This document shows positions 7,985-9,147 of a DNA stretch of 64,000 nt, piece by piece; positions within the stretch are counted from its first letter, which is position 1, and every line of letters starts with the position of its first letter. Below the pieces are notes generated by a model. The model had not been told where the DNA came from. It did no database searches and was given only the letters and a program-made list of their open reading frames with translations. The stretch lies in sequence record PQ666540; one strand, 5' to 3'. Source of the stretch: Shigella phage sb2. Position numbers and translations under genes: made by a program.

Positions 7985-8548
7985 TTATTTATCTAGTTTA
8001 GTTATTATAGCTTCTGCAGCAGCTTTTAGCTTAGATGCGGTGTTAATACGATTTTTAATTTCAGTATACGCATCGCCAAGAACATCAAGGCTATCAGAAT
8101 AAACACTTACACTATTGCGTTCGCTATTTGAAATAGAACCTTTAGTTTTACGATCAAAATCGGTGTACACGTCTTGAAGATCGCGGGCTGCCTTCTTTGC
8201 ATCATCCAATGCATCAAGAGCTTTATTCAAAGCATTAACGTATTTTTTAGTGTCGAACATATTCTTAGAAATTTTAACAGGTGCACGTTCAGGAGTAGCT
8301 AATACAGATTTAGGAACCTGAGCGCCAGATGCCAATTTCTTAGAAATTTTGAAAAATGCTTTATTGAATTTATTTTCTTGACTCATTGTAAAAGAACTAT
8401 TATCGATGTTGTACATTTCAATAGCTTTAGCTTTCCACTTAAGAAAATCGCCGCGGTCTTTTGGGTCCAATTGGAAGAATACTTTAGTAAGATCTGCTTC
8501 AGATGGTAATTTTGCTGCTTCGGTTAAAAATTCGGCATAGGTTTTCAT
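7985..8548 (-). CDS. internal-protein-like capsid-targeted protein (187 aa)
   Basis: N-terminus MKTYAEFLTEAAK (CTS with LTE site); flanked by terminator hairpins. Confidence 0.7.
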   Translation of the reverse strand: MKTYAEFLTEAAKLPSEADLTKVFFQLDPKDRGDFLKWKAKAIEMYNIDNSSFTMSQENKFNKAFFKISKKLASGAQVPKSVLATPERAPVKISKNMFDTKKYVNALNKALDALDDAKKAARDLQDVYTDFDRKTKGSISNSERNSVSVYSDSLDVLGDAYTEIKNRINTASKLKAAAEAIITKLDK

Positions 8549-8638
8549 TTAAAATCCTTGAAATAATCTATCGGTTGGTTATTAATTATTTATTACTTTG
8601 TTATTATCCGTAACAGCGTTATCCGAGTGATTCAAACT

Positions 8639-8664
8639 AAAAAGCCCCAACCTTTTGGTCGAGG
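8639..8664 (-). terminator. intrinsic terminator after IP-like gene 8674..9147
   Basis: Minus strand CCUCGACC-AAAA-GGUUGGGG followed by CUUUUU. Confidence 0.65.
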
Positions 8665-8673
8665 TTAAGAATG

Positions 8674-9147
8674 TTATTTGATTTGTTTAGCAGACCAAAT
8701 GCGGTCTTTAATAATTTTTTGGATGTCTTCAACATACTCAAGAGAGTGAACATGTGGATTATCTTTGAAACTATAAGCACGGGCTAGCTTTTGGCCTTCG
8801 GTTTTGATTACTAAAAGCTCTTTAAGAATAGCTTCATATTTAGAGATAATTCCTTTAACAATATTTTTTTCTTGTGCAGCTTTAGGATCTGCTTTAGGAG
8901 CAGGTTTACCCGAAGCCTTTGCAAAAGCAGCACCAGTAGCAACTAAACTTTTCCAGGCCATACTAACTGCATTTCCCGTAAATCCTTCTGCTTTCATGTC
9001 GCGAGCAAATTGGAATCGTGATTCGTCAGAAGCATCTTTATAGGAATATTTACCCGCTGCAATGGCTGCTTTTGCGACAGCTTGAATTTCGGTGCTAGAT
9101 GCTTCATTTAACACCGCTTCATTTAAAAATTGAGCATATGATTTCAT
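8674..9147 (-). CDS. internal-protein-like capsid-targeted protein (157 aa)
   Basis: N-terminus MKSYAQFLNEAVLNE (CTS); late promoter TATAAATA upstream, terminator downstream. Confidence 0.7.
   Translation of the reverse strand: MKSYAQFLNEAVLNEASSTEIQAVAKAAIAAGKYSYKDASDESRFQFARDMKAEGFTGNAVSMAWKSLVATGAAFAKASGKPAPKADPKAAQEKNIVKGIISKYEAILKELLVIKTEGQKLARAYSFKDNPHVHSLEYVEDIQKIIKDRIWSAKQIK

Follow-up and report, generated by a model that had tools for sequence, protein, structure and literature searches.

Four open reading frames begin with a capsid targeting sequence

We analysed a 64,000-nt stretch of the genome of Shigella phage sb2 (PQ666540; hereafter the window), focusing on two tandem genes, for proteins of 187 and 157 amino acids (aa), that lie at a locus absent from phage T4. 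The first 25 kb of the window are 97.5% identical to Shigella phage pSs-1, which places the phage in Tequatrovirus. The gene order is that of T4 (regB, the vs genes, denV, e, nudE, e.2-e.8, rnaC/rnaD, the tRNAs, tRNA.2-4, the ipI position, 57B, 57A, 1, 3, 2), and all of these genes are on the minus strand. An original prediction, made from the sequence alone, had listed four open reading frames (ORFs) of this region as candidate packaged anti-defence effectors, proposing that each starts with the capsid targeting sequence (CTS) of the T4 internal proteins (IPs) and contains an (L/I)xE site for the protease gp21. Indeed, all four minus-strand ORFs are present with the predicted coordinates and N-termini (a slash marks a predicted gp21 cleavage site):

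2474..2947, minus strand: Ip4; Pfam DUF7412, phrog_3155 'internal virion protein'; leader MKTYQEFITE/A
7985..8548, minus strand: CTS gene for the 187-aa protein; phrog_2280; leader MKTYAEFLTE/A
8674..9147, minus strand: CTS gene for the 157-aa protein; phrog_2280; leader MKSYAQFLNE/AVLNE/A
11428..11685, minus strand: ip5 (so named in fFiEco06); phrog_3499 'internal head protein'; leader MKTFKEFATKTTITE/S

In T4, the 10 N-terminal residues of IPIII are enough to direct encapsidation; suppressor mutagenesis of IPIII assigned the control of targeting to residues 4 and 7 and that of processing to residues 8 and 10, and gp21 cleaves after L/I-X-E (PMC9026906, a review of Black's work). The four leaders match those of T4 (MKTYQEFIAE/A in IPII and IPIII, MKTFKEFTSTTTPVSTITE/A in IPI), the leader of 11428..11685 being of the IPI type (MKTFKEF...), and both tandem proteins keep Y4, F7, L8 and E10, i.e., the mapped CTS positions, which are conserved among the candidates in general (the residues at 4 and 7 being aromatic). 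The (L/I)xE site was likewise found in each ORF, as ITE at residues 8-10 of Ip4, LTE at 8-10 of the 187-aa protein, LNE at both 8-10 and 13-15 of the 157-aa protein, and ITE at 13-15 of ip5. From this motif, gp21 is predicted to cut LTE/A at residue 10 of the 187-aa protein, LNE/A at residues 10 and 15 of the 157-aa protein, ITE/A in Ip4 and ITE/S in ip5. The start MK[TS][YF] occurs 7 times in the six-frame translation of the whole window: four times at these ORFs (85-187 aa) and three times in frames that reach a stop codon within 4-14 codons. Since the motif is confined to the four real ORFs, we conclude that the leader is no chance feature.

Two of the four ORFs had already been named. The ORF at 2474..2947 is annotated 'internal virion protein' in the RefSeq record of pSs-1, is called Ip4 in ime09 and ECML-363, and is also present in T2; in the window it has an exact late promoter at 2989..2982. 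The ip5 gene occupies the T4 ipI slot, adjoining 57B, but the two products have only the leader in common, the mature part of ip5 being unrelated to IPI*. Ip1, Ip2 and Ip3 are inhibitors of GmrSD type IV enzymes, each acting on a different one, whereas ip4-10 gave no reproducible inhibition against a panel of GmrSD enzymes (Silas et al. 2025, PMC12373910). We equate Ip4 and ip5 with members of this ip4-10 set by name alone, as the paper gives no sequences. The notion of four candidates with unknown targets should therefore be narrowed: Ip4 and ip5 are named and, judging by these names, belong to a set already assayed, and only the two tandem genes are unannotated.

Two cassettes are inserted at the rnaC terminator

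The tandem genes lie between e.8 and rnaC, where T4 has intergenic DNA. An alignment with T4 shows an insertion of about 1.25 kb (window ~7953-9197), placed precisely behind the T-run of the rnaC terminator. The features of this insertion are, in the direction of transcription:

9202..9225, minus strand: intrinsic terminator of rnaC with a 10-bp stem (-20.3 kcal/mol); third copy of direct repeat D1 (9189-9228)
9195..9188, minus strand: late promoter TATAAATA, exact T4 motif; lies directly after the rnaC terminator and 41 nt ahead of the start codon (ATG) of the 157-aa gene
8645..8670, minus strand: terminator of the 157-aa cassette; copies the rnaC terminator at 88% identity (repeat D1, 8630-8669)
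8586..8593 (approximate), minus strand: late-promoter-like AATAAATA, ~40 nt upstream of the 187-aa gene; one mismatch to TATAAATA
7958..7976, minus strand: terminator of the 187-aa cassette; 7-bp stem, -10.5 kcal/mol; collinearity with T4 resumes directly behind its GGGCTTTTT

Because transcription runs leftward, the pair is situated downstream of the tRNA cluster and rnaD/rnaC, and not upstream of the tRNAs as had been assumed. A promoter and a terminator of its own had been proposed for each gene. All three terminators are supported; they form a family of direct repeats (7943-7982, 8630-8669 and 9189-9228) with folding energies of -10.5, -12.1 and -20.3 kcal/mol, respectively. Since the terminator of the 157-aa gene copies that of rnaC, the 157-aa cassette lies between direct repeats. 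The promoters differ: the 157-aa gene, which also has a good ribosome-binding site, carries the exact late motif, whereas the element in front of the 187-aa gene deviates by one mismatch, and RB14 has GATAAATA at the place of AATAAATA. The exact motif occurs 23 times in the window versus 9.9 expected, and 0 of 100 shuffles reached 23. Judged by its sequence, AATAAATA is a plausible but unproven late promoter of the 187-aa gene; alternatively, the gene may be transcribed by read-through from upstream.

The cassettes insert at GGGGCTTTTT, which forms the 3' edge of the rnaC terminator. The following states of the site were found:

Empty site, T4: ...GGTTGGGGCTTTTT, then directly GGTATCTAAGCC...
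157-aa gene only, fD1: terminator, then GGTATAAATA...gene...copy of the rnaC terminator, then GGTATCTAGGCC
187-aa gene only, RB14 and RB69: terminator, then AGTTTGAATCAC...gene...CCCTATCTAAATGATAGGGCTTTTT, then GGTATCTAGGCC
Both genes, this window: two cassettes in series

These four occupancy states, with clean junctions at GGGGCTTTTT in the junction sequences of the other phages, indicate two independent cassettes. Most of both genes is present in 118 records and only one of them in others, and pSs-1, vB_EcoM_G50 and fPS-65 are examples of phages with both; the coverage of a T4-junction query does not separate empty from 157-only sites. Each gene forms an independent promoter-gene-terminator unit placed exactly at the 3' edge of the rnaC terminator, and such units are probably gained, lost and swapped between phages via recombination at the repeated terminator sequence.

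Turnover by cassette and not by sequence

The 187-aa protein was found in 164 phage records, 163 of them at ≥95% identity and one at 85%, and the 157-aa protein in 511 records at 53-100% identity; every one of these is annotated as 'hypothetical protein'. The ratio of nonsynonymous to synonymous substitution rates (dN/dS) was ~0.06 for the 187-aa gene and 0.05-0.09 for the 157-aa gene. The range of 0.05-0.09 held in four comparisons, one of them with a dS of 1.5, showing that these are real genes and speaking against rapid sequence evolution. The locus had been described as one of fast turnover, and this is correct for the cassettes (empty, either or both; one block moved between genera) but not for the sequences, as the low dN/dS and the near-identity of the 187-aa protein attest. 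Turnover is by gain and loss of cassettes, domain swaps and disruption, and not by rapid sequence change.

The moved block was found in the Mosigvirus RB69, where a frameshift splits the 187-aa gene into ORF148c and ORF149c. From e.8 across the 187-aa gene to rnaC/rnaD, the window and RB69 share 93-95% identity, as against 72-77% in the flanking genes, which indicates an exchange between the genera Tequatrovirus and Mosigvirus. Frameshifted or truncated copies are common (RB69, F26, KpV477, SfPhi01). The N-terminal domain of the 157-aa family is conserved in T4-like phages of Klebsiella and Yersinia, joined there to a different C-terminal domain.

Several allelic variants deserve mention. The end of the linker-coding part of the 157-aa gene contains a run of seven A's (window 8864-8870, minus strand), and the loss of one A leads to truncated variants of 108-111 aa that consist of leader, N-domain and linker only. 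They are found in vB_Eco_F26, SfPhi01 (P0017, 10 member sequences) and the divergent P0020 (6 members), and could reflect either a recurrent true frameshift or a homopolymer sequencing error. In the 187-aa gene, a direct repeat coding for KISK (D3, window 8262-8284 and 8337-8359, 75 nt apart) stands on either side of the disordered linker, and a variant in Shigella phage CT01 (L010 1801-2289) lacks exactly these 25 residues, being a natural linker-less allele. In vB_Eco_F26 (L005 1501-1623; also P0027), a 40-aa ORF joins the N-terminus of e.8 (MENEMDNYGELF) to the last 28 residues of the 187-aa protein; it adjoins an intact copy of the 187-aa gene and resembles a recombination scar.

Architecture and relationship of the two proteins

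AlphaFold (AF2) models of the two tandem proteins follow a common plan: all-helical, with a small N-terminal domain, a disordered Pro/Lys/Ala-rich linker and a C-terminal hairpin. In the 187-aa protein (mean pLDDT 61.5) the model places the helical N-domain at residues 17-73, the Pro/Lys-rich linker at 78-98 and a long helical hairpin at 100-186; in the 157-aa protein (mean pLDDT 74) these elements are placed at ~17-75, 76-87 (Pro/Lys/Ala-rich) and 88-154.

The mature regions of the four ORFs had been called unrelated to one another. For the tandem pair, BLASTP (best E 0.016) and hhalign (probability 23%) detected no homology between the mature proteins, in line with this view; against it stand the shared architecture and the phrog_2280 profile, which matches both proteins along their full length. 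A phmmer search of the mature 187-aa protein against 1.84 billion proteins returned no member of the 157-aa family, and the origin of the two genes as paralogs, as phrog_2280 suggests, was thus unsupported by BLASTP, hhalign and exhaustive phmmer. We also considered the C-terminal domain of the 177-aa relatives from Klebsiella and Yersinia phages (P0021, P0022) as a bridge between the families, but hhalign gave only 2.5%. Searches of Pfam, NCBIfam and PDB sequences with the two proteins yielded only sub-threshold noise, no similarity in sequence or fold was detected between the mature proteins and IPI*, IPII or IPIII, and neither sequence nor fold searches detected an enzymatic domain or motif in either of them.

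The only distant homolog of the mature 187-aa protein among the 1.84 billion representative proteins was P0028 (29% identity, E 2.5e-5, phmmer). It has the same architecture and the leader MITFNEFLNES, and the next gene on its contig, coding for an unrelated ART-PolyVal/DUF3990 protein, starts with MITFKQFLNES. The matching leaders on unrelated cargo show that the leader follows the phage lineage and not the cargo, as expected for a signal that is read by the scaffold and protease of that phage. This ART-PolyVal/DUF3990 neighbour (144 aa; metagenomic contig SRR28624380_555336, L011 2092-2526) is probably a capsid-targeted ADP-ribosyltransferase-like effector of a T4-like phage.

Evidence for packaging

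Besides the CTS determinants, size and charge of the tandem proteins fit packaged proteins. Their predicted mature forms (19.7 kDa, pI 9.46 for the 187-aa protein; 16.0 kDa, pI 9.50 for the 157-aa protein) are basic and IP-sized, the corresponding values for T4 IPI*, IPII* and IPIII* being pI 9.0-9.65 and 8-20 kDa. The exact late promoter of the 157-aa gene, which Ip4 has as well, would suit expression during prohead assembly. Moreover, protein g140 of the Yersinia phage fD1, 98% identical to the 157-aa protein, was particle-associated at the strict threshold in liquid chromatography-tandem mass spectrometry (LC-MS/MS) of purified virions. Flags were also given to g129, the Ip4 ortholog of fD1, which is annotated 'Head protein' and marked PPAP, and to g146 at the ipI locus, but not to the neighbours g138 and g139 (PMC8309999). 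We conclude that the 157-aa protein is probably packaged and processed by gp21; for the 187-aa protein this is probable as well, if with slightly less confidence.

A quite different explanation of the leader would be that it is a relic of recombination with ip genes, the products acting unpackaged as cytoplasmic late or accessory proteins. The leader and the region 5' of it are recognised sites of recombination, and swapping of leader regions does occur, since the 24-nt 5' untranslated region (UTR) of Ip4 is identical to that of T4 ipII and the region upstream of ip5 matches that of T4 ipI; we found no virion data for the 187-aa protein, and the fD1 proteome is too unspecific to prove packaging. 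However, the tandem genes have distinct 5' UTRs of their own, and only 25-26 of 33 nt of their leader DNA match the ipII or Ip4 leaders, yet all mapped residues are retained, which argues against such a relic. Homologs of 40% identity retain a leader-like start ending in L-x-E (e.g., MKFKEFLAEA, MLEYSEFLKE), and over the range of 29-40% identity the leader persists and co-varies with that of an unrelated neighbour. A functionless leader would also decay at a dS of ~1.5. We therefore regard the relic as highly improbable.

Proposed function and its alternatives

We consider it on balance likely that the products of the two tandem genes are T4-type internal proteins that had gone without a name, encoded at an IP locus that is missing in T4, with a proposed role in neutralising host defence; they are probably new members of a known family of injected proteins. 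According to this proposal, the tandem genes would be expressed late in infection, and the N-terminal 10-residue CTS would dock each protein on the scaffolding core of the prohead. There, gp21 would cut the 187-aa protein after LTE10 and the 157-aa protein after LNE10 and/or LNE15. The basic mature proteins (~19.7 and 16 kDa) would remain in the head with the DNA and be ejected with it into the next host, where they may bind and neutralise a first-response defence, e.g., a modification-dependent nuclease of the GmrSD type, as T4 Ip1-3 do. The designation as packaged anti-defence effectors thus combines two parts of different standing: packaging has the CTS determinants, the basic IP-sized proteins and the fD1 ortholog behind it, whereas the anti-defence role is drawn by analogy to Ip1-3. 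Given packaging, this analogy and the accessory, mobile nature of the cassettes make an anti-defence role about evenly balanced against other roles, and a GmrSD-type target specifically appears doubtful.

Several points weigh against this proposal. What the analysis shows are the features of the leaders, the anatomy of the cassettes, the polymorphism of the locus, purifying selection and the virion hit for the ortholog of the 157-aa protein; processing, ejection and anti-defence activity are inferred. The fD1 proteome has low specificity, listing 113-137 of 277 phage proteins and 672 host proteins, with DenV, lysozyme and NudE included, so that the detection of g140 is supportive and not decisive. 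We found no virion data for the 187-aa protein in the literature (the paper on fPS-65, which has both genes, contains no virion proteomics), and the promoter of this gene is only a near-match. Fold searches with the predicted models returned generic coiled-coil matches only, none of them informative. As ip4-10 did not reproducibly inhibit GmrSD, not every Ip can be taken to have such a target. Strong purifying selection and near-identity over 164 genomes are unlike an arms race that escalates at the sequence level. Finally, the basic Pro/Lys/Ala-rich linkers could equally well serve DNA binding or a structural role.

The last two points lead to the main rival, an intracapsid or DNA-associated role. 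Here the proteins would be packaged but act in the head or on phage DNA, in charge neutralisation or condensation, in core or head assembly as IPIII, or as a DNA escort. The mature proteins are basic (pI ~9.5), and their linkers (KPAPKADPKAAQEK; AKPKAAKK in P0022; PAKPEAPK in P0028) seem to resemble basic DNA-binding tails. The coiled-coil hairpins of the models would suggest oligomerisation, IPIII mutants assemble heads more slowly and give a smaller burst (PMC9026906), and purifying selection with near-invariance would fit a housekeeping-like interaction. However, the genes are dispensable by lineage, as T4 and many relatives lack both and others have one, and disrupted copies are common in the phages named above. 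The CT01 variant dispenses with the entire linker, and all three T4 IPs of known function inhibit defences (PMC12373910). An in-head role is therefore unlikely in our view, though less so than the other alternatives.

Injected effectors could also have a target other than restriction, in host takeover or in interference with competing phages or prophages. Alt is a precedent for the former, being a packaged, gp21-processed ADP-ribosyltransferase effector that modifies host RNA polymerase (PMC9026906), and the leader-bearing ART-PolyVal neighbour of P0028 shows that CTS cargo is not limited to nuclease inhibitors. That ip4-10 inhibited no tested GmrSD (PMC12373910) fits this alternative as well. 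However, neither tandem protein has a detectable enzymatic domain or motif, and small all-helical binders suit stoichiometric inhibitors more than enzymes. We regard such a target as quite improbable.

A bolder version of the anti-defence proposal, which we think unlikely to hold in full, is that the rnaC-terminator site is a third, unrecognised hotspot of internal proteins, with cassettes of late promoter, gene and terminator being shuffled within and between T4-like genera through recombination at a repeated terminator. Its proteins would be injected inhibitors of defences not yet tied to any Ip, possibly not GmrSD; the basic linker would tether them to the ejecting DNA, while the hairpin would bind the target.

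Comparison with known systems

The tandem proteins resemble the T4 IPs in the CTS with the same key residues and the (L/I)xE gp21 site, in their small basic mature forms and in their mutually dissimilar mature parts; their genes, too, are non-essential, accessory, patchily distributed among T-even phages and equipped with their own terminator and, at least for the 157-aa gene, their own promoter. They differ in their locus after the rnaC terminator and, according to the models, in a two-domain helical structure with a long disordered basic linker as opposed to the compact alpha/beta fold of IPI*.

The polymorphic ip genes of T-even phages, Ip4-Ip10 and beyond, go back to Repoila et al. 1994 as related in PMC12373910 and PMC3012670. 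They, too, are unrelated ORFs that share only a leader and replace each other at hypervariable loci, and Ip4 (2474..2947) and ip5 (11428..11685) are members by annotation. The tandem genes, in contrast, have no Ip name in ~560 GenBank records and lie outside both loci described for T4; the survey of Repoila reportedly covered the ipI region only. The cassettes are also reminiscent of the PeSL cassettes (early promoter + stem-loop) that Arbiol, Comeau and Krisch are said to have proposed in 2010 for modular shuffling in T4-type genomes. In both cases single-gene modules are delimited by short repeated regulatory sequences, at which insertion/deletion junctions between related phages also fall, but the repeat described here consists of an intrinsic terminator (GGTTGGGGCTTTTT) with a late promoter behind it, and not of an early promoter with a stem-loop. 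Finally, DarA, DarB and Hdf of P1, the ejection proteins of phiKZ and SPN3US, and ART-PolyVal proteins are delivered with the DNA, as proposed for the tandem proteins, act before phage genes are expressed and are cut after Glu by a prohead protease; compared with these, the tandem proteins are much smaller and single-purpose, have the T4-specific 10-residue leader and show no homology.

Obviously, the protein class, Ip4 and ip5 were known before; new are the two tandem genes, which are unannotated and widespread and occupy a locus absent from T4. With targets known for Ip1-3 and none for ip4-10, cataloguing injected proteins is a practical bottleneck for mapping the arms race. Many of the 164 and 511 sequenced phage genomes that carry the two genes are those of therapeutic candidates, and should the genes determine host range, they would be relevant when phage cocktails are designed. 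The cassette structure also offers a simple guide to further injected proteins, namely to look for ORFs that carry a leader and stand between a terminator copy and a late promoter.

Further observations in the window and in related phages

The 90 nt upstream of ip5 are nearly identical to those of T4 ipI, in contrast to the unrelated coding sequences of the mature parts. T4 ipI, ipII and ipIII and the ip5 of the window (upstream region 11686-11780) have an early-type promoter (GTTTAC...TACTAT/TATATT) overlapping with an inverted repeat, whereas exact late promoters precede Ip4 and the 157-aa gene.

A leader-like N-terminus with an I-x-E site is also present in gp2, the DNA end protector (window 13855-14679), which is thought to reside in the head. 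The gp2 of Klebsiella phage KpV477 (L012 26475-27302) begins with MAIFEFITEAAES, again leader-like and with an I-x-E site.

The tRNA cluster (9542-10373) comprises ten genes (Arg, Asn, Tyr, Met, Thr, Ser, Pro, Gly, Leu, Gln) and lacks the homing endonuclease gene segB, which interrupts the cluster of T4; T4 has eight tRNAs, Ile among them. In an Rfam scan of 7700-10500, only the ten tRNAs matched, and no family was assigned to rnaC/rnaD. Related phages have an additional tRNA-His and a 116-aa ORF between rnaC/rnaD and tRNA-Arg. Another variable slot of the same region is the e.7 position (window 6895-7440), which is occupied by a 181-aa ORF here, by the 111-aa e.7 in T4 and by a 58-aa ORF in G50, RB14 and fD1.

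In RB69, ORF123c and ORF124c (L008 1450-1779 and 1848-2120) are annotated as 'hypothetical', yet start with MKTYQEFIAA and MKTYKEFIAE. Next to them lie two annotated internal head proteins; within 18 kb, RB69 has at least 7 leader-bearing ORFs.

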